Shown one piece after another: positions 3,934 through 42,304 of a stretch of 64,000 nucleotides of DNA (position 1 is the first letter of the stretch; each line of letters starts with the position of its first letter). A program made the translations under genes and the position numbers. The notes below the pieces were generated by a model, which made no database searches, was not told where the DNA came from, and saw only the letters and a list, made by a program, of their open reading frames with translations. Origin of the DNA: an uncultured virus (IMG/VR IMGVR_UViG_3300008107_006367) (Duplodnaviria; Heunggongvirae; Uroviricota; Caudoviricetes); IMG/VR virus record IMGVR_UViG_3300008107_006367. One strand, written 5' to 3'.

Positions 3934-4554
3934 ATGAAAATTTGTATTATATCAACGGGTAGAGCAGGTTCTACATCTTTATATGAATTATTAAGAGCAC
4001 ACTTACCATCTAATTATTATTTTGGTTTAGAACCATTTAACACTATGAGTAGACCTATCGGATATGATATCAATCAAAAACCTATTATTGAATCCAAAAA
4101 GCATGTTTTAATTAAAACATTAGTAGACCAAACTCAATCAGATATCAATATCAATGATATGCATGTTTGGCTATTTGAACATTTCGATGAAATAATATTA
4201 TTAGATAGATTGGATAAACAATTACAAATTGAAAGTTTTTCATATCAAACTTATACTAATAGTTTTAGGTGGCATGATAAAAGACGTTATAGAATGGAGT
4301 TAGTTCCTAATGAAATAATTCAATTGAATACTAAAAGGGTGGAGTATTCAACCAATAAAATAAATGAGTTATCCAAAAAGTATAATAAAAAAATTTATTA
4401 CTACGAAGATATTTTTTTAGATAATAACCACAAAATATTAGATGAGATTTTTAGTTCTATAAATAGAATACCAAACGAAAAACTTTTGAATTTATGGGTA
4501 ATATCCAATGAAAAAAGAGTTAGATTAAAAGATGAAGAATTAAAAATACTTTAA
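3934..4554 (+). CDS. sulfotransferase-like protein
   Basis: N-terminal GRAGSTSL (5'-PSB loop), EPF, LDR, YYEDIF. Confidence 0.7.
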   Translation: MKICIISTGRAGSTSLYELLRAHLPSNYYFGLEPFNTMSRPIGYDINQKPIIESKKHVLIKTLVDQTQSDININDMHVWLFEHFDEIILLDRLDKQLQIESFSYQTYTNSFRWHDKRRYRMELVPNEIIQLNTKRVEYSTNKINELSKKYNKKIYYYEDIFLDNNHKILDEIFSSINRIPNEKLLNLWVISNEKRVRLKDEELKIL

Positions 4555-4555
4555 T

Positions 4556-5014
4556 ATGCTAAGTAATCTAATTAAAAAATCGTATAGTGATATATTTGAT
4601 AAGTTATATACTATTACAAATGGAAGAGTTATATTAGGCGGTTCTTTATCTTTAAGGTTTCAAAATATAATTCAAAGAGATGTACACGATTTGGATGTAA
4701 ATATTTTAATAGAAGATTGGGAGTTATACAAATCCGAAATAAGTAAACATTTTAGAGTATATCCCAATTTTAAAATAGTATATGATGTACTAAAGTACGA
4801 TGTATATACCTGTTTTGATATAGAAACTAAATTAAACGAATTTCATTTATTTGTAAATCATTCCAATAATATATTTAACGTAATAAACGATATAAGAGTT
4901 TTAAAACCAAATTATCATCTGATTGATAAACAAATGATATATAATAGTGGACAAGATATTGAAAAGCATTTATCTGATATCCTTATGATTAAAACTCGCA
5001 TCAATGAGAAATAA
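4556..5014 (+). CDS. Pol-beta-type nucleotidyltransferase-like protein
   Basis: GGSLSL...RDVHDLDV motif; C-terminal KHLSD. Confidence 0.65.
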   Translation: MLSNLIKKSYSDIFDKLYTITNGRVILGGSLSLRFQNIIQRDVHDLDVNILIEDWELYKSEISKHFRVYPNFKIVYDVLKYDVYTCFDIETKLNEFHLFVNHSNNIFNVINDIRVLKPNYHLIDKQMIYNSGQDIEKHLSDILMIKTRINEK

Positions 5015-5576
5015 AAAAGCTATATTTGTATGCGGAAGTGGTGGAAGTGGTAAATCTACATTTGTTAAAAACAACCTTTCAGGATTTGTACATATAGATG
5101 TTGATATAATCTATGAAGAGTTATTAATTCAGAGTGGATTGGGATTAAAAATAAAGAACTTCACAAATTCAGAATTCGAAGCTTCTATAAAATTATTCGA
5201 ACAATCTAAACTATTAAATGATGAAAAGTTTAAGAATGCGGTAAATGATGGAAAAGATATTGTTATAGATGGTATCGGACGTGATGTAGATATTATTATG
5301 CTACAAAGACGTATCTTAGAAAAAGCAGGATATTTTACTTCTATGATTATGCTATACAGCGACTTAGAAACCTGTATAAATAGAGTCGAAGGTAGAGATA
5401 GGGTATATCCAACTGAAATAACAATAGATAGTTGGTATTTAGCCTATTCTAATTTAGCAGAATATAGAAAACAATTTGGTAATCGCTTTTTATTGATTTA
5501 CAACGATACTTATGATTGGAAAATCAAATTAGAAATATTTATAAACAAAGATAAAGAAATAAAAAAAATAATTTAA
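5004..5576 (+). CDS. P-loop kinase (zeta-toxin/AAA_33-like)
   Basis: GSGGSGKST Walker A, IDVD, IVIDG, RVEGR lid. Confidence 0.75.
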   Translation: MRNKKAIFVCGSGGSGKSTFVKNNLSGFVHIDVDIIYEELLIQSGLGLKIKNFTNSEFEASIKLFEQSKLLNDEKFKNAVNDGKDIVIDGIGRDVDIIMLQRRILEKAGYFTSMIMLYSDLETCINRVEGRDRVYPTEITIDSWYLAYSNLAEYRKQFGNRFLLIYNDTYDWKIKLEIFINKDKEIKKII

Positions 5577-5585
5577 ATACAAAAT

Positions 5586-7439
5586 ATGAGAAGTGTATTG
5601 ATAGGCGCCGATATCCTAAAATTAGAAAATGGATACAAATTATTAGAAATAAATACAGATGCAGATTTATATCTGCCGGATGTACCATATATGGATTTAG
5701 ACCCATTATTTACATATTTGGTAAATAATTCGTACACTAAATTTGTAATGATATATAAAAAGAAGCACGTTGTTGATGCGGTATTAAATTTGTTTGAAGC
5801 CAAATGTAATGAATTTTCAATAGAATTTTCAACTATTTGGGTAAATAATAATAGTGTGGTTGCACCATCTATAACAGATGAACCTAATACATTTTATTTA
5901 AGGTGTTCATATGATGCAACAGCTATTATAGATGATACATATTGTAGAGATAAATCGGCTGTTGCAAAATTGTTGTTTGATTCGAATAATGAAAATATAC
6001 TACCAAAGACATATGTTAAATATACAGACGATGATTCAATTTTAGATAATCTAACTAATTTAGTTGATAATGGATTATCACCAAATGTAATAGTAAAGAA
6101 GTCTTTGCCAGATTTTGATAGAATTGACTATCCAGCTTTTTATAATATTACATCATCAACGCAATTGGATACTTTAAAATCCGAATTAGCGGATGATTAT
6201 ATGATACAAGAATTTGAAATAAATACAAATTTAAATGCTGCTGGTAAAATTAGTAATATAATACGATTAAATGTTATTTTATTATCAGATGTTGAAACTA
6301 TGATACCAATTGGTATTAGTATCACCAACAATCAATTACCATTAGATACATCTATTATAACCTATACAAACAATAGACTTGATAATAAATGGAGAGCTAT
6401 GTACTTCTCTAACCCAAATTATTTATCATTTGGTGTACCCGGCAGCTATGAAGTTGTTAAAATAGTCAATGGTATTGAAGAAGTGGTTAACATAGAAACG
6501 CTATCAATGGGAGATACTATAAAATCGGTTCGATTCCCTAATTTAAGTTTGACAGCTTCAGCGGAAGAAACATTGGATTGGTATATATCATCATCTGAAT
6601 TGAATACTATCACATACGAAACATCTTCGGTAAATTTTATTACTAACAAAGCTTATGAGGGTTGGTTAGTTAATATAGTATATGGTAATGATACAATTAG
6701 TGGTTCTAGTATATTATCTAATAGTGAATTATTAGTAATAAGTAGTTCGGTTGATAATAATATACGATTCGTAAGTGCGGCTGATGTTAACTTAAATGAT
6801 TATATAGTAACTACAAATCAAATTGCTCTACCAATAATATCTAAAGAAAATGTATGGTATTCCGGTAGTATTACTATTTTAGACATAGAGCCTGATGATG
6901 TATTTGTTGCCGGTACAACGCATAATGATATTACCAAAAATAATGTTGGTAATATATTATTACACAATAAATGTCACACATACCCTTATTGTTGTTTTTC
7001 GGAAGATACACTAATATCAATGGATGGAATTGAGAAAGAGATAAAAGATGTAGTAGTGGGTGATTTAGTTTGGTCTTTCAATTTCAATACAAACCAAAAA
7101 GAATTAAATAAAGTATTAGAAATAGTTTCTCCAATACAAAATGATATTATAGAAATTAAATTCAAAAATGGTACATCCATTTTAAACACATTTGACCATC
7201 CATATTATAATATAGATGGTACATTAATATCATATAGTCCAGAAAAAACAAAAGAATGGTATAATGGTGAAATCCTTAAAATGGATATTAGTAGTGTATG
7301 TATTGATATTAATGGTAACAAAGTTGAAATTGAATCTATAACAGAAATAGTATCACCTATTCAAACATATAACTTATTTGTAGAAAATAATCATAATTTT
7401 TATGCTAATGGTATTTTAGTATATGATGAACAAAAATAA
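5586..7439 (+). CDS. circularly permuted ATP-grasp ligase fused to two tandem Hint domains
   Basis: N-terminal GAD...LLEINT, then DK, LPKTY, VIVKK, IQEF; Hint-1 ~6432-6968 ending ILLHN; Hint-2 6993-7439 CFSEDTLI...VGDLVWS...TFDHP...YNLFVENNHNFYANGILVYD. Confidence 0.75.
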   Translation: MRSVLIGADILKLENGYKLLEINTDADLYLPDVPYMDLDPLFTYLVNNSYTKFVMIYKKKHVVDAVLNLFEAKCNEFSIEFSTIWVNNNSVVAPSITDEPNTFYLRCSYDATAIIDDTYCRDKSAVAKLLFDSNNENILPKTYVKYTDDDSILDNLTNLVDNGLSPNVIVKKSLPDFDRIDYPAFYNITSSTQLDTLKSELADDYMIQEFEINTNLNAAGKISNIIRLNVILLSDVETMIPIGISITNNQLPLDTSIITYTNNRLDNKWRAMYFSNPNYLSFGVPGSYEVVKIVNGIEEVVNIETLSMGDTIKSVRFPNLSLTASAEETLDWYISSSELNTITYETSSVNFITNKAYEGWLVNIVYGNDTISGSSILSNSELLVISSSVDNNIRFVSAADVNLNDYIVTTNQIALPIISKENVWYSGSITILDIEPDDVFVAGTTHNDITKNNVGNILLHNKCHTYPYCCFSEDTLISMDGIEKEIKDVVVGDLVWSFNFNTNQKELNKVLEIVSPIQNDIIEIKFKNGTSILNTFDHPYYNIDGTLISYSPEKTKEWYNGEILKMDISSVCIDINGNKVEIESITEIVSPIQTYNLFVENNHNFYANGILVYDEQK

Positions 7440-7450
7440 ATTTAAATAAA

Positions 7451-7546
7451 ATGAGCACAAAAACATCAGCTACTCCTTCCGATAAAGCGGCTTCTTTATC
7501 ATTATTACAAATCTTATTCGCAGCCATTAAGGCAAAGCATTCTTAA
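7451..7546 (+). CDS. small peptide (31 aa)
   Basis: MSTKTSATPSDKAASLSLLQILFAAIKAKHS; fills the gap, A-rich leader, more GC-rich than neighbours. Confidence 0.55.
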   Translation: MSTKTSATPSDKAASLSLLQILFAAIKAKHS

Positions 7547-7556
7547 TTATATTTGA

Positions 7557-8234
7557 ATGAATAAGTTATGGGTATTTGGCGATTCCTTCTCTGCAACAAA
7601 TAAATTAAATAATTTAGAAAGTTGGAGATTAAAGTATAAAAATTGGAAAGGATATACCCCACTTGTTTGGGGAGATTTTTTAAGTTTAAAAATCCAACAT
7701 AGGTTAATTAATTGTGCAATAGGTGGTATCGATAATTATACTATATTTGAAACAATATTGGATGTTATAGATAGTATAAAAGAAAATGATATTGTAATTA
7801 TTGGTTGGTCATCTACCCTTAGATTTCGATTAGTTGGTAAAAACAATTCTTTTGTAACAATTAGACCAAATAATTTCAATTTGGATACCGTATCGTTCTC
7901 CCAAAGTACACTAACAAATACAGAAGAATTTGAAAATATATCATTAAAAACTATAACCGAATTACTGATTAATAGGGATAATGCGTTATTTCAATATGAA
8001 GTAAATAGATTTATCAAAATAATAAATCTTTATTTAAATAATAAATGTAAGGTAATTCATTGGTCTCCATTTCAATTTATTAATAATAATATGAATATTA
8101 TTAAAATTGAATGTATAAAAGATTTAGAAAAGATATCAGATGAAACTAATGGATATATAAACGATGGACATTATAGTGAGAACGGCCACAAAATATTATC
8201 TGAATATTTTTATGATTTAATATCTAAAAAATAA
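7557..8234 (+). CDS. SGNH/GDSL hydrolase-like protein
   Basis: VFGDSF block I, GGIDN, DGHYSENGH (DxH). Confidence 0.75.
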   Translation: MNKLWVFGDSFSATNKLNNLESWRLKYKNWKGYTPLVWGDFLSLKIQHRLINCAIGGIDNYTIFETILDVIDSIKENDIVIIGWSSTLRFRLVGKNNSFVTIRPNNFNLDTVSFSQSTLTNTEEFENISLKTITELLINRDNALFQYEVNRFIKIINLYLNNKCKVIHWSPFQFINNNMNIIKIECIKDLEKISDETNGYINDGHYSENGHKILSEYFYDLISKK

Positions 8235-8237
8235 TTT

Positions 8238-8737
8238 ATGAATAAGTTATGGGTATTTGGTGATAACAATTCAGCTATCTTTGGTAAAACTAAAGAAAGA
8301 AGATTTAAGTATTACAAAGAATATAGGGGTGGTACTTTCCCAAAAAGCTGGTCACGAATGGATTTGTTACAATAAGGCCCAATCAATTTAAACCGGAACA
8401 CATTGATAATCCTGTTTTATTAAATGGTATAAATATAGATGTTGTTAATTCAATTCTGTATAATAGAACTAACACTCAATGGATTAATGAAGTTTATAAT
8501 TGGGAGGTAATTATAAATTTATTATCTAAATTAATTGGATTTAAATTAATCTATTGGACATTTGATAAAAAATTAAACAAACCCCATTATTTATCAACAA
8601 ATAATTTTAGGGAAGATTTGATAAGGCTGGGCGCAGAAGATATAACTACAGAGACAGGGGGTAAATTAATCGATAGTCATTTTGGTGAAAAAGGACAATT
8701 TATTCAATCAGATTATTTTTATAAATTTTTAATATGA
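8238..8737 (+). pseudogene. SGNH paralogue broken by internal deletion/frameshift near 8354
   Basis: MNKLWVFGDNN...KSWS in one frame; FVTIRPN...ETGGKLIDSHFGEKGQ...KFLI* in another; middle segment of the 7557 paralogue is missing. Confidence 0.7.
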
Positions 8738-9594
8738 GTAAACTTTGGACATTTGGGGATAGCTTTACTGCAGGACATGGATGTAAATATTTTGATAATC
8801 CGGCTCATAACTATCTTAGTCCTTTTAAAAACTATATAGTAGCTGGTAAAAAAATTTGGAATGAGATTGTCGCAGACTCGTTATCATTAGAGTTAGTGGA
8901 TTTATCCAAAAATGGTATTACTACTGATACTATTTTTGATACATTATTGGAACATACATCAACTATCACTCCATCCGACATTGTTATAATACAAACATCT
9001 ACCATTGGTAGATTTGATTTTCCTTTTTTAAAACAAAATACTTTAATGGGAACTAATATGTTTGATTCTCCTTATTTTCTTAAACCTATATTTGTTACTA
9101 GTTTACTAAAAGAGTATCGTAAAGAATCTGAAAATATATTAAAATATGTAAACAGTCAAGAGGATTTAAAAAATAATAATTTAAAGTTAAATAAAACCAA
9201 ATACGATACAATTCGCAATTTTTTTTCAGAATTTATTATGACTGAAAAATATTATGAACGTAGTATTTGGAGAATTGTAGAATTTACAAAGATTTTAAAA
9301 TCAATGGGAATAACTACATATATTATAAATGAAGATATTTGGCCAAAATATTTATCGAAACCAACTAATCTAATGGAAATACATCCGAGAGGGATGTACG
9401 GATTTGTGGACGAATTAAACCTAACAATATATGCGGATACTAATGGTTGGATAAACGATTGGCATCCTAGTTATGATGGGCATATTAATATAGCAAATTT
9501 TATTATAAATTTTATTAAAAATGAAACTACTAATATACACAACTCACAGAACGGGTTCAACATCGTTAGCTCAACTGTTGATGACCCATTATAA
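8734..9594 (+). CDS. SGNH/GDSL hydrolase-like protein
   Basis: TFGDSFTAG, DWHPSYDGH. Confidence 0.75.
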   Translation: MSKLWTFGDSFTAGHGCKYFDNPAHNYLSPFKNYIVAGKKIWNEIVADSLSLELVDLSKNGITTDTIFDTLLEHTSTITPSDIVIIQTSTIGRFDFPFLKQNTLMGTNMFDSPYFLKPIFVTSLLKEYRKESENILKYVNSQEDLKNNNLKLNKTKYDTIRNFFSEFIMTEKYYERSIWRIVEFTKILKSMGITTYIINEDIWPKYLSKPTNLMEIHPRGMYGFVDELNLTIYADTNGWINDWHPSYDGHINIANFIINFIKNETTNIHNSQNGFNIVSSTVDDPL

Positions 9595-11856: not shown

Positions 11857-12255
11857 ATGTTTTATTCAGATTTTGACAAATTCGTTGAGAAATTATTAGT
11901 GGCTGATAACAAACCACTTTGGGAAACACATTCGAGAACATTTGTTCCTTCTAAATTTGCAGTTGATGTAAAGGATGAAAAAGCCTACATAGCTCTATCG
12001 GTATTAGGACACGAACCTAAAAACATTGATATCAATTGCTATGAGGATAAGATTGAAATCAAAGCAAAAAAAGAAAGTAAGGAAGAAAAAACGCCGTTTG
12101 ATGAATTAGTAGCTAATATCGATGAAAGAATTACTTTAGGTAAAGATTTAGATGGTAGAAGCGCTAAAGCAGAATTTAAAAATGGTATTCTTACATTGGT
12201 TATAGAAAGAAAAGAAGAATCTAAGCCAAAGAAAGTTTCAATAAAAGTTGGTTAA
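11857..12255 (+). CDS. small heat shock protein Hsp20/alpha-crystallin
   Basis: AEFKNGILTL motif, C-terminal V-S-I (IxI) motif. Confidence 0.9.
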   Translation: MFYSDFDKFVEKLLVADNKPLWETHSRTFVPSKFAVDVKDEKAYIALSVLGHEPKNIDINCYEDKIEIKAKKESKEEKTPFDELVANIDERITLGKDLDGRSAKAEFKNGILTLVIERKEESKPKKVSIKVG

Positions 12256-17392: not shown

Positions 17393-19096
17393 ATGGTTTC
17401 ATTAGGTATATCGGCATTCTATCACGATTCTGCCGCTTGTTTATTTGAGAACGGAAAAGTAATAGCAGCAATAGAGGAAGAAAAATTATCAGGCATTAAG
17501 CACGATAATTCATTTCCAATTAAAGCAATAAAATGGTTATTACAATATTCCAACAAAACAATATCTGATATAGATACGATATGTTGGTATGAAAACCCGA
17601 ATTTAAAATATGATAGAGTAAAAAACACTTTAGGAAAATACTGGTGGAAAAACAGAAAGACTTGGAAAGCTTTTAAAAAAGAATTTGAAGAAGCAGAGGG
17701 AAATCTTTCAATGTATTTGGCTAAAAGATTAAATTATGTAAAAGATATTCAATACATAAAACACCATCATTCACATTTAGCTTTTTCATATTATACTTCA
17801 CCATTTGATAAGGCAGTTGGTATTTCAATAGATGGGGTAGGAGAATGGGAAACTGCATTAGTTACAAAATGTAGTGAAAATACATTTGAAGATATTCATT
17901 CACTAACATTTCCAAATTCATTAGGGTTGGTCTATTCAACAATAACTTCATACTTAGGGTTCAAACCAAATAATGGAGAATACAAAGTAATGGGTTTAGC
18001 ACCATATGGTGATTCAACAAAATTTAAAGATATCTTTGATAAAATATCTAATTTTGATATAGGTGGAAATATAAAAATAAATCAAAAATATTTTACTTGG
18101 AAATATTCGAATACCGATATGTACACATACAAATTAGTTAAACTAATTGGATTCGAACCAAGAGAACCTGAATCAAAAATAGAACAACATCATATGGATT
18201 TGGCAGCCGCTTTACAAAAGTGGTACGAAAGCTGCTTTTATTATTTTATAAATCACTCAATGCAGCAATACGATACTGGTAATTTAGTATTAGGAGGAGG
18301 TTCTGCCTACAATGGAACAGCCAATGGAAAAATACAAAAGCATACATCAGTTAAACAAATATGGATTCCATTTGCCCCATCCGATGCGGGTTCATCAATT
18401 GGAGCATGTTTATATCATTGGCATAACATATTAGGTAATGCAAAAGTAAAAGGTGGGGATAACCAATCACCATACTTAGGACCTGAATGGAATAATGACC
18501 AATTTTTAAATACATTATTAAGAGAAGATGTACCAACAAAAAATATAAAATTTTACGATACTCAAAAAGAGTTATGTAAAGAAGTTGCTAAACTTATAAA
18601 TGAAGGTTCTGTAATCGGTTGGTTTCAAGGAAGGACTGAATTTGGTGCAAGAGCATTGGGCAATCGTTCTATATTGGCTAACCCACACTTATCAGATGTA
18701 AGAGATAGGATAAATAGAGTAGTTAAAAAGAGAGAATTGTTTAGACCATTTGCGCCATCGGTAGTTTTTGAAGAATATGAAAAATACTTTACTTCCGAAG
18801 GAGAAGTTCCATATATGAATCAGGTTGTTAAAGTAACCGATTATAAATCAATACCATCTGTAACCCACGTTGATAAATCAGCGAGAATACAAACAGTTAC
18901 GAAAAAGCAAAACCCACTTTACCATATGCTACTTAAAGAATTTAAAAAGGTTAGTGGTACACCAATACTATTAAACACATCTTTTAATTTAAGAGGGCAT
19001 ACAATGACTAATGACCCACAAAAAGCAATTTGGACATTCTTAAATTCAGATATGGATTATTTAGTATTGGGTAATTATTTAATTGATAAGAAATGA
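17393..19096 (+). CDS. carbamoyltransferase (NodU/CmcH family)
   Basis: HDSAA, EEEK, HHHSH, DGVGE, GEYKVMGLAPYG, EFGARALGNRSIL, FRPFAP, LLNTSFN. Confidence 0.92.
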   Translation: MVSLGISAFYHDSAACLFENGKVIAAIEEEKLSGIKHDNSFPIKAIKWLLQYSNKTISDIDTICWYENPNLKYDRVKNTLGKYWWKNRKTWKAFKKEFEEAEGNLSMYLAKRLNYVKDIQYIKHHHSHLAFSYYTSPFDKAVGISIDGVGEWETALVTKCSENTFEDIHSLTFPNSLGLVYSTITSYLGFKPNNGEYKVMGLAPYGDSTKFKDIFDKISNFDIGGNIKINQKYFTWKYSNTDMYTYKLVKLIGFEPREPESKIEQHHMDLAAALQKWYESCFYYFINHSMQQYDTGNLVLGGGSAYNGTANGKIQKHTSVKQIWIPFAPSDAGSSIGACLYHWHNILGNAKVKGGDNQSPYLGPEWNNDQFLNTLLREDVPTKNIKFYDTQKELCKEVAKLINEGSVIGWFQGRTEFGARALGNRSILANPHLSDVRDRINRVVKKRELFRPFAPSVVFEEYEKYFTSEGEVPYMNQVVKVTDYKSIPSVTHVDKSARIQTVTKKQNPLYHMLLKEFKKVSGTPILLNTSFNLRGHTMTNDPQKAIWTFLNSDMDYLVLGNYLIDKK

Positions 19097-38222: not shown

Positions 38223-39164
38223 GTGTTAAGTAGCAATGATAAAAATAAGGTAATTACTGCCCTTACTAATGTATTGGGTAGCGGTGTATCCCTAAAAGGG
38301 AACGAATTAGCATTTTACTGCCCATTTTGTAATCACCATAAACCAAAACTACAAGTTAATACCGAAACCCAAAAGTGGCATTGTTGGACTTGTAATAGTG
38401 GTGGTAAAAAATTGACATCCCTACTTCGTAAATTAGATGTAGATAGAAAAACAATATCTTTAATTAGAGAGATATATGGGGATAGTAATTGGACTCCACA
38501 ACAAGAAGATGCCGAAACAAAGGTATTCATTTCACTTCCAAAAGAATTTATTAGTTTAGCAGAAGAACCAAAAGGATTTAATCCTGAATATAAACATGCG
38601 ATACATTACCTTACACAAAGAGGTATTGGTATAAAAGATATTATTAAGCATAATATTGGATATTGTAAAGAAGGATTATATGCTCGTAGAGTGATAATTC
38701 CATCATACAATTCTGATGGTTCACTTAATTATTTTGTTTCTCGTTCTTATTATTCGGAAGAGAAGATGAAATACAAAAACCCACCAATCAGTAAGAATAT
38801 AATTTGTTTTGAATCACAGGTAAATTGGAATGAACCAATTATACTTTGTGAGGGGGTATTTGATGCTATAACAATTAAAAGAAATGCAATTCCACTTTTA
38901 GGTAAGTTTCCTTCCAAGCAATTGGTTGAAAAAATCTTTATGAGTGGAGTAAACAATATCATTATTTCATTAGATAACGATGCAATCAACGAAGCTCTTA
39001 AAGCAGCTGATTATTTCAGAAAAAATGGAATCAATGTAAAGATGATGTATCTAAAAGATAAAGATGCATCTGATATGGGCTATGAAAAATTTTATGAAGA
39101 ATTAAGTAAAACTAAAGAATTCTCTTCTGAAGATTTACTGTTAAACAAAATAAATTCATTATGA
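38223..39164 (+). CDS. DNA primase (Zn finger + TOPRIM)
   Basis: CPFCNH...WHCWTC, KYKNP, LCEGVFDA, LDNDA, KDASD. Confidence 0.9.
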   Translation: MLSSNDKNKVITALTNVLGSGVSLKGNELAFYCPFCNHHKPKLQVNTETQKWHCWTCNSGGKKLTSLLRKLDVDRKTISLIREIYGDSNWTPQQEDAETKVFISLPKEFISLAEEPKGFNPEYKHAIHYLTQRGIGIKDIIKHNIGYCKEGLYARRVIIPSYNSDGSLNYFVSRSYYSEEKMKYKNPPISKNIICFESQVNWNEPIILCEGVFDAITIKRNAIPLLGKFPSKQLVEKIFMSGVNNIIISLDNDAINEALKAADYFRKNGINVKMMYLKDKDASDMGYEKFYEELSKTKEFSSEDLLLNKINSL

Positions 39165-42100
39165 GTTTAAAAAGAATTTACCATATTGCGGATATTCATA
39201 TTCGTAATGTACAAAGACACAAAGAGTATAGAGCGGTTTTTGAAAAAATGTTTGAAGAAATCCGTAATAGAGGAACGGAGGATTCAATCATTTATTTAGC
39301 AGGTGATATTGCACATGCTAAATTGGAAATGTCACCTGAATTGGTGAAAGAGATTAGTTGGTTATTTACCGAATGTTCTAAACATTGTGAAACAATCCTA
39401 ATCGCAGGTAATCACGATTGTAATATGAACAATTCGGATAGGTTAGATGTATTATCACCTATTGTAGAGGCTTTAAACCTACCAAATTTTCATTATCTTA
39501 GAGATACACAAGTGTATTCAGTTGGTGGTGTAGATTTCGCTGTATTTTCAATCTTTGATAAGAAAGATAATTGGCCTAAAGCAGAAACACTATTTGGAAA
39601 CAAAAAGATTGCACTATTCCACGGACCTGTTGATAATTCACAAACCGATGTGGGGTATGTAGTAAGTAGTAGACATTTCACAACCGACATGTTTGATGGA
39701 TATGATTTAGCCTTATTGGGTGATATCCACAAAAGGCAAACTATGATTTCACCAAGCGGTTGTAAAGTAGTTTATGCCGGTTCATTAGTACAACAAAACT
39801 TTGGTGAGAGTTTAAATGGACACGGATTCTTAGTTTGGGATGTTGCATCTTTAAAATACGAAGCAATTGATATTCCAAATGAGTATGGATATTATACATT
39901 GGATGTAGATAATGGCGTAGTGCCGGTTGTAACCGATATGCCAAAAAATCCACGTTTGAGAGTTCGCTTATCTAATACCGATACCGCTGATACAAAGAAA
40001 GTAATCACCGAAATTAAAATGAGATATGGTGTTGATGATTTCACAATTATTAGAACCGATTCATTCAATAAACAAAAAACAGGTAATAGATTAAACAAAT
40101 TAGATTTTGAAGATATATCCGATATCAACTATCAAAACACATTGATAAAAGATTATGTTCAAAGAATGATGCCATTTACAACTACTGCGGATTTAGATGG
40201 TTTAGAAGCAATTAATAGAGATATCAATAGTAGAATAACGCAAGAAGAAGTACATAGAAATATACATTGGAAGCCCATAAAGTTTACATTCAGTAATATG
40301 TTCTCTTATGGTGAAAACAACAAAATCGATTTCGCCAAAGTAGGAGGATTGATGGGATTATTCGCACCAAACGCTAGTGGTAAATCATCCCTATTTGATG
40401 CAATCTCCTTTTGTTTGTTTGATAAATGTAGTAGAGCATTTAAGGCTACTCACATTATGAACAATCGTAAAAAGGATTTCGAATGCCACCTACATTTCCA
40501 AGTTAATGGAATGGATTTCCATATTAGTAGAACTGCTAAAACAATCAACAAAGGAAAGAACGTTAAAGTGGATGTACAATTTTGGAAAGATGAGGGAGGT
40601 ACAATCACATCTTTAAATGGAACGGAGAGAAGGGATACAAATGTAGTAATTGAACAATACGTTGGTAAGTACGAAGATTTCGTCCTAACTGCTTTATCTC
40701 TACAAGGTAACAATGCTTTATTCATTGATAAATCACAATCGGAGAGAAAGGATTTGTTAGCACAATTTATGGGATTGGATATATTCGATAAATTGTATGA
40801 AACGGCAAGTGAAGATATAAAGGAAGTTGCAGTACTTATCAAAAATTTTAAGAAAACCGACTTTACGACAGAGTTGGCTGAAAAAGGTTTAGAAAAGCAA
40901 ACAAAGAAATCGGAACTAAGAGCAAAGGAAAAGGAATTAGGAACAAAAACAAATGATGTAGAAGATTTATCTAATAGAATATTGGGATTAACAAAAGAGT
41001 TAGTGCCAGTAGATGCAAATTTAGATTTAGAGAAGCTAGAAAAGAAAAAGAATCAAATTGGATTTGATATTCTACACGTTCTTTCTGAAGAAAAAAGTAA
41101 GAAAGCAAAATTAGATGAATATACTCAAAGTATTTCTGAAATATCACAATCGATTGAAGAACACAAAACTATTAATGGTAAACCAATCGAAGATGCTAAG
41201 AAGGAATGGGATGAATATAAAAGTGAGATAAATGAAACCGAACATCAAATTCAGTTATTAGAACAATCCTTAGAATCTAATAGAGAAAAACTTTCACATT
41301 TGGAACAACACGAATATGACCCAAATTGTAAGTTTTGTATGAACAACGTATTCGTAAAAGATGCGTTAGAAACAAAATCTAAAGTTGAAGAGCAAGAAGA
41401 TAAGTTAACCGAATTAGGTAACAAACATCAATCTTTAATTCAACAGGCATCTTATATTGCAGATGTGGAAGAACAATGGGATTCTTTAGTTGAGTTAAAA
41501 TCTAAGTATCAAAAAGCAATTGTAATTAAAGAAAAAACAATCGCAGAATTGAATGGATTTGAAACCCAAAAACAATTATACGATACTCAGTTGGAGCAAG
41601 TAAACGCAGATATTCAAAGATACCACGATAATGAAGATACTATTAAACGTAATAAACAAATAGAATCGGTTATCGATGGACTAAATAGAACAAAGAGCGA
41701 AATAGAATCGGAAGTAAAAACGCTTAACAAACAAATATCTGATTTGAATAGCTCTATTACTCAAATACAATCGTTTATAGACAATGTAAAGGATAAGATG
41801 GATGAAGTTAAGGACTTAGAAGAAAAGAGTCGCCTATACACCTATTATATCGATTCTGTAAAGAGAGATGGTGTACCATACGAACTTATTTCGAAAGCAA
41901 TGCCTGTTATTGAAAATGAAATCAATAATATACTTGCGCAGGTTGTAGATTTTAGTATCGTAATGGATATCGATGGTAAATCTATTAATGCAAAGATTGT
42001 TTATGAGGACCAAGAATGGCCATTAGAAATGTGTAGTGGTATGGAGAAGTTCGTAAGTGGTTTGGCTATTAGAGTAGCTCTGATTAATATTTGTAATCTA

Positions 42101-42304
42101 CCACGTCCTAATTTCTTAGTTATTGATGAAGGATTTGGTACATTAGATGCTAATAACTTATCATCATTATTTATGATGATGCAATATTTAAAAACTCAAT
42201 TCGATTTCATTTGGATGATTTCTCACTTAGAACAAATGAGAGATATCGTAGATGGATTGATAGAGATAAAAAAGATAGATGGGTTTAGTAAGATTGATTT
42301 TTAA
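39161..42304 (+). CDS. fused SbcD/Mre11 nuclease - SbcC/Rad50 ATPase (gp47-gp46-like)
   Basis: ADIH, GD, GNHD, GDIH phosphoesterase motifs; NASGKSS Walker A; CKFC zinc hook; CSGMEK, IDEGFGTLD, ISH. Confidence 0.9.
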   Translation: MSLKRIYHIADIHIRNVQRHKEYRAVFEKMFEEIRNRGTEDSIIYLAGDIAHAKLEMSPELVKEISWLFTECSKHCETILIAGNHDCNMNNSDRLDVLSPIVEALNLPNFHYLRDTQVYSVGGVDFAVFSIFDKKDNWPKAETLFGNKKIALFHGPVDNSQTDVGYVVSSRHFTTDMFDGYDLALLGDIHKRQTMISPSGCKVVYAGSLVQQNFGESLNGHGFLVWDVASLKYEAIDIPNEYGYYTLDVDNGVVPVVTDMPKNPRLRVRLSNTDTADTKKVITEIKMRYGVDDFTIIRTDSFNKQKTGNRLNKLDFEDISDINYQNTLIKDYVQRMMPFTTTADLDGLEAINRDINSRITQEEVHRNIHWKPIKFTFSNMFSYGENNKIDFAKVGGLMGLFAPNASGKSSLFDAISFCLFDKCSRAFKATHIMNNRKKDFECHLHFQVNGMDFHISRTAKTINKGKNVKVDVQFWKDEGGTITSLNGTERRDTNVVIEQYVGKYEDFVLTALSLQGNNALFIDKSQSERKDLLAQFMGLDIFDKLYETASEDIKEVAVLIKNFKKTDFTTELAEKGLEKQTKKSELRAKEKELGTKTNDVEDLSNRILGLTKELVPVDANLDLEKLEKKKNQIGFDILHVLSEEKSKKAKLDEYTQSISEISQSIEEHKTINGKPIEDAKKEWDEYKSEINETEHQIQLLEQSLESNREKLSHLEQHEYDPNCKFCMNNVFVKDALETKSKVEEQEDKLTELGNKHQSLIQQASYIADVEEQWDSLVELKSKYQKAIVIKEKTIAELNGFETQKQLYDTQLEQVNADIQRYHDNEDTIKRNKQIESVIDGLNRTKSEIESEVKTLNKQISDLNSSITQIQSFIDNVKDKMDEVKDLEEKSRLYTYYIDSVKRDGVPYELISKAMPVIENEINNILAQVVDFSIVMDIDGKSINAKIVYEDQEWPLEMCSGMEKFVSGLAIRVALINICNLPRPNFLVIDEGFGTLDANNLSSLFMMMQYLKTQFDFIWMISHLEQMRDIVDGLIEIKKIDGFSKIDF

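Follow-up and report, generated by a model that had tools for sequence, protein, structure and literature searches.

A 64,000-nucleotide stretch of phage DNA (hereafter, the window) encodes a 617-residue protein in which an ATP-grasp ligase domain is followed by a Hint domain that keeps the residues of C-terminal cleavage alone (Hint-1), an eight-residue linker and a second, BIL-type Hint domain (Hint-2), and next to it lies a conserved gene for a 31-residue peptide with a predicted docking site on the ATP-grasp domain. Taking folds, residue conservation, gene linkage and predicted docking together, we tentatively read the family as phage-only, self-processing amide ligases whose processing and ligation we infer, a reading in which our confidence stops just short of even. 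The architecture points to an undescribed viral way to cut and join peptides. In the literature we found no description of an ATP-grasp/Hint fusion system, the portion of a jumbo-phage paper that was available makes no mention of one (PMC7824862), and every source that names the family calls it hypothetical.

Domain architecture and genomic setting

An earlier reading, made from the letters of the sequence only, had proposed an ATP-grasp ligase fused to two complementary, half-active Hint domains around the octapeptide KCHTYPYC. The open reading frame is present as described, and the proposed boundaries fall on the expected residues, with position 6432 corresponding to G283, 6968 to N461, 6969–6992 to K462–C469 and 6993 to C470 (Table 1). 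All three folds were borne out by structure models, profile comparison and conservation; the AF2 model of the full-length protein reached a pLDDT of 88.4 and a pTM of 0.71, and that of residues 1–470 reached 89.2 and 0.84.

A word index returned 219 homologues of the 617-residue protein, and conservation was assessed in 73 diverse relatives (22–85% identity, mean column identity 21%); family counts and statistics given here ignore kinship and are not phylogenetically independent. Residues 1–460 had no match in Pfam or PHROGs, Hint-2 was the sole region matched in profile searches of PDB sequences with the whole protein, and tblastn against 50,697 phage records matched the Hint-2 region alone, in seven Vibrio phage helicase genes at about 30% identity. 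This sizeable family has its core in 218 of 268 collected proteins, and its protein-atlas clusters are 96–100% viral. Among one genome each of 185,579 bacterial and archaeal species, searched at pattern sensitivity, 87 stretches carried the pattern and none encoded a relative. Phage-only is our best reading of this distribution. The ligase gene is absent from G001, the record nearest to the window.

Several neighbouring genes recur across 13 loci, the window's own and 12 related viral ones. Paralogues bearing FGDS at the N terminus (BLAST cluster 1) are found at all 13, in 34 copies in total; they have no Pfam match, and by their motif they are putatively SGNH-like. Upstream, clusters 2, 3 and 6 occur at 10, 8 and 6 of the 13 loci, respectively. 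The 64-kb window contains no tRNA genes, and its ORFs show no C-terminal tag common to neighbouring enzymes.

Table 1 Features of the ligase locus and its surroundings, in window coordinates.
Feature	Positions	Strand	Basis or remark
Cluster-2 protein	3934-4554	+	Conserved upstream neighbour
Cluster-3 protein, 152 aa	4556-5014	+	Conserved upstream neighbour
P-loop kinase	5004-5576	+	AAA_33 2.5e-7, Zeta_toxin 4.8e-7
Whole ORF, 617 aa: ATP-grasp, Hint-1, 8-aa linker, Hint-2	5586..7439	+	AF2 model
ATP-grasp ligase domain, GS/GspS/YgiC type, residues 1-279	5586..6422	+	VIA, Foldseek, conserved residues
D9...E21-x-N23 motif ADILKLENGYKLLEIN, putative Mg/ATP site	5610..5654	+	Invariant in 73/73
Hint-1, residues 283-461: Gly at intein residue 1, without TxxH, His460-Asn461 end	6432..6968	+	VIA, hhalign, conservation
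His460-Asn461 codons, predicted Asn-cyclisation (C-terminal cleavage) site, N461/K462	6963..6968	+	Conservation
Linker/tail K462-C469, KCHTYPYC	6969..6992	+	K1, C2 and C8 conserved in near relatives
Hint-2, BIL-type, residues 470-617: Cys470, T535-H538, Y613-D614, end EQK	6993..7439	+	VIA, profile
31-aa partner peptide gene MSTKTSATPSDKAASLSLLQILFAAIKAKHS	7451..7546	+	Directly 3' of ligase gene
Three tandem paralogues, N-terminal FGDS	7557-8234; 8238-8737 (broken); 8734-9594	+	BLAST cluster 1

An ATP-grasp fold of the GS/GspS/YgiC type

In VIA-align comparisons, residues 1–279 were closest to YgiC (7uka; Z 9.1, rmsd 4.3, 205 residues aligned), with GSS22 (5oeu, Z 9.0) and GspS (2io7, Z 8.8) next, and Foldseek agreed (7uk8, E 2.4e-6); the domain has an ATP-grasp fold with the strand order of this clade. 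Canonical ATP-grasps (RimK, LysX/ArgX, TTLL and DcsG) scored Z 5.5–6.5 and aligned across residues ~50–279 only, consistent with the motif order reported from the sequence, in which the GxD...LEIN element comes first. That order stands as seen, but it is not a new permutation, as both the fold and hhalign identify it as the native order of the GS/GspS/YgiC clade. In the hhalign comparison, which is weak (E 0.026), residues 8–52 align with YgiC residues 101–146 over 45 columns that include the motif D..KLLE.N.DT.

Five residues (D9, E21, N23, R106 and D116) are invariant in the 73 relatives, and K171 and R227 are kept in 71 and 72 of them; these residues would serve in metal and ATP binding. 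The assignment rests on the fold (Z about 9) and the short motif, and its sequence support is weak: no ATP-grasp family in Pfam matched the 617-residue protein, which misses the threshold of the curated models (GSP_synth or similar), GSP_synth matched two of the 73 relatives (best E 0.011), and PDB sequence profiles gave no significant similarity between the domain and GS/GspS/YgiC enzymes.

Two Hint domains with reciprocal losses

Residues 280–463 superimpose on the NpuDnaB intein (Z 16.4, rmsd 1.9, 135 residues aligned), on Hedgehog (1at0, Z 16.0) and on a BIL domain (2lwy, Z 15.9), with residue 283 at intein position 1 and residue 461 at the last position. Local hhalign also aligned the columns of Hint-1 with those of Hint-2 (probability 98.1%, E 8.9e-14, 134 columns), so that this segment is a member of the Hint superfamily by fold and by profile homology. 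As had been proposed, its catalytic set is halved. G283 occupies the place of the nucleophile, a Cys being found in the junction window of only one of the 73 relatives, and TxxH is missing, the block-B column holding Glu, Ser, Thr or Lys and never His. Hint-1 thus lacks what an intein needs at its N-terminal end and retains the terminal His-Asn, with H460 kept in 71 and N461 in 72 of the 73 relatives, alongside E435 (71/73) and D438 (70/73). By analogy with intein chemistry, a cut at N461/K462 is to be expected. The residue that follows, K462, lies in a column of Ala (19), Lys (13), Pro (9) and others among the 73 relatives, and is not a C-extein nucleophile.

The closest structure to Hint-2 is Tetrahymena BUBL1 BIL2 (Z 25.1, rmsd 1.4, 145 residues aligned), with residues 470 and 614 aligned to its first and last positions; it is also the best sequence match (E 8.7e-25, profile against PDB sequences). 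Pfam places Hint-2 near Intein_splicing (E 1.2e-7, under the gathering score) and PT-HINT (E 0.0022; 51 of 73 members matched), and domains of the Hint-2 type in 49 of 73 members also match its AXH family. Cys1 and the TFDH motif are both there, as the sequence had suggested: among 53 relatives with Hint-2, C470 is kept in all and T535 and H538 in 52 each. The terminal pair in these 53 is His-Asn in 44 and Tyr/Phe-Asp in nine, and in the window's protein Y613-D614 takes the last intein positions in place of His-Asn. Across 168 Hint-2 domains of the family, Cys1 is present in 168, and the ends are HN in 84 and [YF]DE in 79. The reciprocity of the losses holds in the near relatives that carry Hint-2, where TxxH and a [YF]DE end occur together in 78 of 78. 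Position +1 after D614 is E615. Because each Hint lacks a full catalytic set and the residues that come next, K462 and E615, are not Cys, Ser or Thr, no splicing is expected.

A separate peptide gene adjoins the ligase gene

A gene for a peptide of 31–53 residues lies directly downstream of the ligase gene in the window and at 12 of 12 related viral loci. The protein collection contains 48 clusters of such partner peptides, 41 of which end in H[ST]; the MAIYK group, five of the 48, has no His-Ser/Thr end. For 11 further pairs of peptide and ligase clusters, the longest contigs are of equal size. Compared with L001, the peptide gene shows ten codons with synonymous differences only and six with non-synonymous ones, and its last 17 codons show seven and one; on this codon comparison, the partner peptide is under purifying selection.

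Predictions of the core in complex with ATP, two Mg and the peptide gave ipSAE values of 0.85, 0.85 and 0.84, against 0.00 for the best of three controls; the runs shared at least 97% of contacts, and the partner had a pLDDT of 91. Calibration put 116 of 157 solved complexes at or above the mark, as well as 2 of 215 mismatched pairs; these figures are only roughly valid here, because our own alignments were used and ligands were included. The peptide helix is predicted to contact even-numbered residues of strands 3–13, 16–23 and 225–233, and since the invariant D9, E21, N23 and R227 are odd-numbered, its likely position is on the side of the sheet that faces away from the active site. On the strength of this predicted binding to the ATP-grasp domain, the peptide is a likelier partner or substrate of the ligase than the octapeptide. 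The original idea that a single polypeptide holds precursor, proteases and ligase does not accommodate a separate, conserved peptide gene whose product is predicted to bind the ligase.

Lys12 of the partner peptide, considered as an acyl acceptor, is disfavoured, since at least 4 of the 48 clusters have Arg or Gln there or lack the residue. Partner peptides fused to longer proteins were represented by one match, of 133 residues on a 500-base contig, which lends no support to such fusions.

Proposed mechanism

We propose a constant module that would comprise the ATP-grasp domain, the cleavage-only Hint-1, a Lys-containing tail (often with several Cys) and the separate 31-residue peptide. The ATP-grasp domain would share the habit of its clade, which activates peptide C-terminal carboxylates (glutathione synthetase, glutathionylspermidine synthetase and YgiC/YjfC), and the peptide would dock on it through its C-terminal amphipathic helix. 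Hint-1, with its N-terminal half-reaction lost, would use His-Asn to cut after Asn461 via a succinimide. In the near clade, the KCHTYPYC tail would additionally be capped by the optional Hint-2, which, being limited to an N–S acyl shift at Cys469/Cys470, would remove itself and so leave, or transiently activate, the tail C-terminus. The expected products are a 461-residue ligase–Hint-1, a 148-residue Hint-2 and the octapeptide. Ligation would most likely join the conserved C-terminal His-Ser carboxylate of the partner peptide to a tail amine, either the Lys462 side chain or the alpha-amine freed by Hint-1 cleavage, so that the products of two genes would be linked and released.

A more specific version, which we consider doubtful though well worth weighing, is a phage peptide-joining machine in which a variable, enzyme-encoded tail is ligated to the constant 31-residue peptide and then freed by Hint-1. 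One polypeptide would here combine two carboxylate activations, an acyl-phosphate made by the ATP-grasp domain and a thioester made by Hint-2, and diversifiable hybrid peptides would be assembled post-translationally from two genes. Tails as short as K or KW would be poor products, which counts against our proposal.

Tails, caps and competing explanations

The C-terminal cap varies across the family. On a tree of 73 proteins, in which Hint-2 was scored by HMM and P0122 (YN for HN) was left unscored, Hint-2 was gained or lost at least nine times, and sister proteins differ in its presence. Another self-cleaving domain, Peptidase_S74, takes its place in some relatives, following HNKW in P0084 (E 0.0017; at 19 bits, short of the 22-bit gathering score) and exceeding that score in P0236 (E 8.5e-5, 23.2 bits); the chain of P0090, a sister, stops at HNKW. 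Whichever domain comes last, Lys is found within the final four residues of 66 of 73 diverse members, where composition would give about 20%, and is present in 19 of 19 members without Hint-2. These near-terminal lysines, the two unrelated kinds of self-removing cap, the His-Ser/Thr ends of most partner peptides and their predicted docking as a helix would all suit a tagging system resembling Pup and PafA, in which the C-terminal carboxylate of the 31-residue modifier is ligated to lysines of phage or host proteins, and the Lys tail is a pseudo-substrate or inhibitor in cis whose removal by Hint-1 and by Hint-2 or S74 switches the ligase on. We judge such tagging unlikely: it has no known target and no supported peptide fusion, and the Cys-rich tails of 25–65 residues in many relatives resemble cargo, not inhibitors.

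The sequence-only reading made KCHTYPYC both precursor and product, excised by Asn cyclisation in Hint-1 and thioester formation in Hint-2 and then closed as a thiolactone, head to tail or as a Lys lariat, or transferred, with the cis ATP-grasp domain adding an amide or ester. Cleavage at both ends of the octapeptide is chemically plausible, the reciprocal losses are conserved as this scheme has them, and the BUBL loci, in which BIL domains surround a ubiquitin-like cargo and BIL2 makes an isopeptide without ATP, are a precedent according to the accessible part of the report on them (PMC8616854). Within the near family (121 proteins, three of them unclassified, having been missed by the block-F regex), the HN/peptide/C pattern is kept in the 78 proteins with Hint-2, all with linkers of six to eight residues; the 65 near relatives with eight-residue linkers all have K1, C2 and C8 and differ at the inner positions, with nine residue types at position 3. 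Tandem Hint arrays of distant relatives repeat HN/linker/C, and distant relatives also carry Cys-rich peptides of 30–36 residues bracketed by Hints.

This eight-residue linker is not exceptionally variable, since the entropy of its inner part (1.31 bits) is similar to that of the Hint-2 start (1.16 bits). Across relatives, linkers range from 0 to 36 residues, those of 0–2 residues (none, A, AP, SP) being common in a large all-Hint-2 clade, and sister proteins without Hint-2 stop 1–7 residues past HN. Because of these short linkers and chain ends, and because Hint-2 is optional, the system probably does not revolve around the octapeptide; with the ATP-grasp domain also predicted to be occupied by a separate conserved peptide, we now regard the octapeptide scheme, including its cyclisation or transfer, as distinctly unlikely. 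What endures of the initial interpretation is its folds, reciprocal losses and HN/peptide/C pattern, whereas the role given to the octapeptide, the one-polypeptide system and the permuted order of the ATP-grasp motifs do not find support in their original form.

Near-identical Hint-2 domains are found on distant cores (the P0135 and P0150 pair, SH-aLRT 86), as would be the case for a mobile element, and binding-only Hint folds exist, the AXH matches to Hint-2-type domains being a case in point. With half of the catalytic apparatus of Hint-1 gone, the protein could then be an intact ligase that never cleaves itself, Hint-1 being structural or binding with HN kept for folding or a ligand, and Hint-2 a neutral, hitch-hiking BIL. 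That would be very improbable given the retention of HN in 71–72 of 73 relatives at such low mean column identity while other Hint catalytic positions drifted, the presence of Cys1 in every family Hint-2, and the near-clade Hint-2 domains being monophyletic (SH-aLRT 100), conserved and without decay. Hardly credible, finally, is a toxin- or bacteriocin-like release of the kind performed by pretoxin-HINT, with the Cys-containing tail as effector and the ATP-grasp domain unrelated, which the PT-HINT match and the conserved pattern of 6-Cys tails in some relatives would fit, but which has against it that there is no secretion or trafficking domain, that tails are just 1–7 residues long in many members, and that conservation extends over the ATP-grasp residues, the partner peptide and the tail module alike.

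Comparison with known systems

In graspetide (microviridin-type) RiPP systems, an ATP-grasp enzyme acts with a precursor peptide that has a docking helix, and the phage loci resemble them in having a small adjacent peptide gene (13/13) whose conserved helix is predicted to sit on the ATP-grasp domain away from the active site. In the phage peptide, however, this helix is C-terminal and not an N-terminal leader, the ATP-grasp domain is of another clade (RimK-like folds, Z about 6), and we know of no Hint domain in graspetide systems. Should the hybrid-peptide version of our proposal be true, it would constitute a new class of ribosomal peptide biosynthesis, in viruses.

The best fold matches of residues 1–279 are GspS, E. 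coli YgiC/YjfC and eukaryotic glutathione synthetase (Z 9.1–8.3), with which the phage domain shares the motif order, with D..LLE.N.DT near the start. These enzymes link the C-terminal carboxylate of a peptide to an amine; YgiC bears the annotation peptide–spermidine ligase, a function for which PMC12568646 also cites it. Unlike YgiC, the phage protein has no counterpart of some 90 N-terminal residues, the alignment starting at YgiC residue 94, and its ATP-grasp domain carries a fused Hint. If the processing is real, this would be the first natural enzyme fused to a Hint domain capable of C-terminal cleavage only.

With inteins, the phage Hints share the fold, the block F/G motifs and terminal His-Asn (Hint-1) or Cys1 and TxxH (Hint-2), but neither carries the full catalytic set or precedes Cys, Ser or Thr. 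They resemble BIL and pretoxin-HINT domains in having no homing endonuclease and no +1 nucleophile and in a chemistry of cleavage, not splicing; the C. thermocellum BIL (2lwy) scored Z 15.9 against Hint-1 and 20.4 against Hint-2. In contrast to those domains, Hint-1 has lost Cys1 and TxxH entirely, and the phage Hints follow an enzyme and precede very short tails, outside secreted or toxin proteins. The family may open a new way of making ligated or cyclised peptides, and may offer compact ligase parts for protein engineering whose self-cleavage we infer.

A further likeness is to the BUBL loci of ciliates (Tetrahymena BUBL1 BIL2, PDB 6tmm/6y75), where two Hint-type domains likewise surround a cargo and the downstream Hint forms a thioester at the cargo C-terminus that is passed to an amine without ATP, as described in the accessible part of PMC8616854. 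The phage cargo differs in being eight residues long, with a pLDDT below 50 at residues 464–467 of the full-length model, and not a ubiquitin fold; of the phage Hints, the first is devoid of Cys1 and the second of a terminal Asn, a fused ATP-grasp ligase precedes them in the chain, and the host of the system is a phage. If its processing is real, the phage protein would be the second known case, after ciliate BUBL, in which Hint domains frame a cargo that is to be released or transferred, here in bacteriophages.

A putative self-processing ligase family and its domain architecture

P0001, the product of the ligase gene, belongs to a hitherto undescribed ligase family that is restricted to phages and predicted to be self-processing. 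Pfam recognised only its C-terminal Hint domain, through PT-HINT and through an Intein_splicing match (E 1.2e-7) that fell short of the gathering score. We built models of residues 1–470 (89-sequence alignment; pLDDT 89.2, pTM 0.84) and of the full-length protein (73 sequences; pLDDT 88.4, pTM 0.71), the latter falling below a pLDDT of 50 only in loop 445–455 and linker 464–467. Exhaustive structural comparison divided the core into two domains, residues 1–279 and 280–463.

The first domain is an ATP-grasp whose nearest structures are YgiC (Z 9.1), the glutathione-synthetase-like GSS22 (9.0) and GspS (8.8), followed by the trypanosome (8.5) and plant (8.3) glutathione synthetases and the E-64 ligase Cp1B (7.8); it falls in the clade that activates peptide C-terminal carboxylates. 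The canonical ATP-grasps RimK, LysX/ArgX, TTLL and DcsG gave Z scores of 5.5–6.5 with alignments starting only at about residue 50, and hhalign placed P0001 8–52 weakly (E 0.026) onto YgiC 101–146 via D..KLLE.N.DT. Eukaryotic glutathione synthetase has a circularly permuted fold; the permuted motif order pointed out in the sequence-only reading is real but not new, being, by structural comparison, native to the GS/GspS clade. Residues D9, E21, N23, R106 and D116 are invariant in our conservation set, which comprises 73 diverse proteins of the family with a mean column identity of 21%.

The second domain, Hint-1, has the fold of Hint domains (Z 16.4 to the NpuDnaB intein, with 135 residues aligned at rmsd 1.9; Z 16.0 to Hedgehog; Z 15.9 to BIL), and superposition pairs G283 with the first intein residue and N461 with the final one. 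In the same set, E435 (71/73), D438 (70/73), H460 (71/73) and N461 (72/73) are conserved, while a Cys at the ATP-grasp/Hint-1 junction occurs in a single member and the block-B column lacks His, and therefore only the machinery for cleavage after the last Asn is retained. Hint-1 is homologous to the C-terminal Hint-2 in profile-profile comparison (98.1%, E 8.9e-14). Folds, profile comparison and conservation thus confirm the earlier observation of an ATP-grasp joined to two reciprocally impaired Hint domains.

Variable C-terminal extensions

A word-index search returned 219 homologues, and an exhaustive search gave 2534 matches at E ≤ 0.001 and 50 at ≤ 1e-30, many of the weaker ones covering Hint-2 only. 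The core was present in 218 of 268 collected proteins and complete, ending in HN, in 206, with Hint-2 absent from 70 of these, single in 105, double in 30 and triple in one. What follows HN is a short tail of 1–7 residues (K, KW, KN, TKSAW, RKNWW, FFK and others), a six-Cys tail of 23–67 residues with the common pattern CxxC...CGxxxCxxxCxxC, or a linker of 0–36 residues leading into one to three Hint-2-type domains. Within tandem arrays, every non-terminal Hint-2 closes with HN, and a linker then leads to the Cys1 of the next domain. In the distant relatives P0134 and P0138, two tandem Hint-2 domains enclose Cys-rich peptides, 30 and 36 residues long, and the enclosed segment looks like a true mini-protein.

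In some members, Hint-2 is replaced by Peptidase_S74, a self-cleaving endosialidase chaperone unrelated to Hint, which immediately follows HN-KW or comes behind a Cys-rich tail; the match stays below threshold in P0084 (E 0.0017) and exceeds it in P0236 (E 8.5e-5). The 545-aa relatives with this match read HNKW and then SDxRLKEN..., and their sister P0090 terminates at HNKW. We take the C-terminal add-ons to be removable caps, whose departure would leave a short tail with a free C-terminus. Independently of the last domain type (HNK, YDEQK, KW and others), 66 of the 73 diverse proteins have a Lys among their four C-terminal residues, compared to ~20% expected from composition; this would fit a role as amine acceptor.

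The nearest structure to Hint-2 is BIL2 from the BUBL1 locus in Tetrahymena (Z 25.1, rmsd 1.4, 28% identity), with C470 on residue 1 and D614 at the position of the terminal Asn. Each of the 168 Hint-2-type domains has Cys as its first residue; the closing residues are HN in 84 and [YF]DE in 79, the latter constituting the window's clade. A terminal Asp can cyclise in some inteins and, by analogy, the Hint-2 C-terminus may keep some reactivity.

Hint-2 presence, labelled by HMM, requires 9 changes on a tree built from the core alone (73 rows, IQ-TREE quick mode, support by SH-aLRT only), and strongly supported sister pairs such as P0160 and P0247 are discordant for it. The Hint-2 copies of the window's clade are monophyletic (SH-aLRT 100), which fits a single acquisition followed by losses. 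P0135 and P0150 carry near-identical Hint-2 domains (SH-aLRT 86; branch lengths 0.12 and 0.17) on cores from different deep clades, suggesting exchange between genes. Judged by this distribution, Hint-2 is not essential to the family.

In the near family, Hint-2 occurs in 78 of 121 proteins, all 78 having TxxH and a 6–8-residue linker. Among the 65 proteins with an 8-residue linker, K1, C2 and C8 never vary; nine residue types occur at position 3 and three to five at positions 4–7. Excision of this linker, KCHTYPYC in P0001, as an octapeptide from between the Hints, as first proposed, may occur but is not the reading we favour.

A linked partner-peptide gene

A 31-aa ORF lies 3' of the ligase gene in the window and in 12/12 related viral loci, whose ligases are 22–100% identical; in two of these loci, a 69-aa ORF with hydrophobic stretches intervenes. 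Its GC content is 0.38 vs 0.28 and 0.24 in the flanking genes, and compared to locus L001, 10 codons differ synonymously only and 6 non-synonymously (7 vs 1 in the last 17 codons). The protein collection held 48 clusters of this peptide, all unnamed or 'hypothetical', 41 with a His-Ser/Thr end; 11 match a ligase cluster in the size of the longest contig, and these pairs probably derive from the same contigs. The GC content, the preponderance of synonymous differences, the clusters and the matching contig sizes are evidence that the ORF is a genuine gene, linked with that of the ligase.

Complex prediction with the core, ATP, two Mg and the peptide gave ipSAE values of 0.85, 0.85 and 0.84 (best control 0.00), where the calibration mark was reached by 116/157 solved complexes and 2/215 mismatched pairs, counts that apply only approximately to this prediction, which used our own alignments and included ligands. 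With a partner pLDDT of 91 and at least 97% of contacts agreeing between runs, the prediction supports peptide binding to the ATP-grasp domain, at residues 6–35, 114–138 and 217–248. The contacted strand residues are even-numbered and D9, E21, N23 and R227 odd-numbered, so the peptide helix would dock behind the active-site sheet, outside the active site, resembling a leader or docking helix.

Genomic setting

The window is AT-rich (GC 0.26–0.37) and carries nearly all ORFs ≥ 100 aa on the + strand. Its gene products include endonuclease V, a fused SbcD/SbcC-like nuclease, a Nol-like carbamoyltransferase, and proteins of the baseplate wedge and tail fibres, which assigns it to a large tailed phage that is uncultured. 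The ligase gene is identical in IMG/VR contig L003. The FGDS-motif family had no match in a Pfam search; its motif makes it a candidate SGNH-like family. The middle of three tandem paralogues is broken in the window by a 172-base deletion relative to L003, which has it intact (223 aa) and is otherwise identical. The Nol-like and Hsp20 genes share an accessory region.

Features of the window and of related loci
Feature	Position	Strand	Product or match	Loci
Ligase gene	5586–7439	+	617 aa	
Partner-peptide gene	7451–7546	+	31 aa	
69-aa ORF, locus L001	7107–7316			
69-aa ORF, locus L002	7860–8069			
FGDS-motif family			N-terminal FGDS; 34 copies in total	13/13
FGDS-motif middle paralogue	8238–8737		broken	
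Cluster 2			P-loop family	10/13
152-aa family				8/13
P-loop kinase	directly 5' of ligase gene			6/13
Hsp20 family protein	11857–12255		Pfam E 1e-10	
Nol-like carbamoyltransferase	17393–19096		PHROG E 4e-122	
Fused SbcD/SbcC-like nuclease	39161–42304		one 1047-aa ORF matching both subunits; top phage match Microcystis phage, 41% identity	

Proposed mechanism and comparison with known systems

Uncoupled C-terminal cleavage is known in inteins without Cys1. For the ligase, the folds, residues, gene linkage and docking prediction suggest a scheme in which cyclisation of Asn461 would cut at N461|K462. Cys470 and Cys469 would give a thioester, from which Hint-2 would depart by hydrolysis or by passing of the acyl group to a nucleophile; PMC8616854 describes acyl transfer to lysine by BUBL BIL2. 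The ATP-grasp would activate the His-Ser carboxylate of the partner peptide for bond formation with a tail amine.

Among the papers searched, none combined Hint or intein-like domains with an ATP-grasp in such a phage protein. The system is neither an intein nor a BUBL locus nor a pretoxin-HINT toxin, and is probably not a graspetide system, though its workings would resemble parts of all four.
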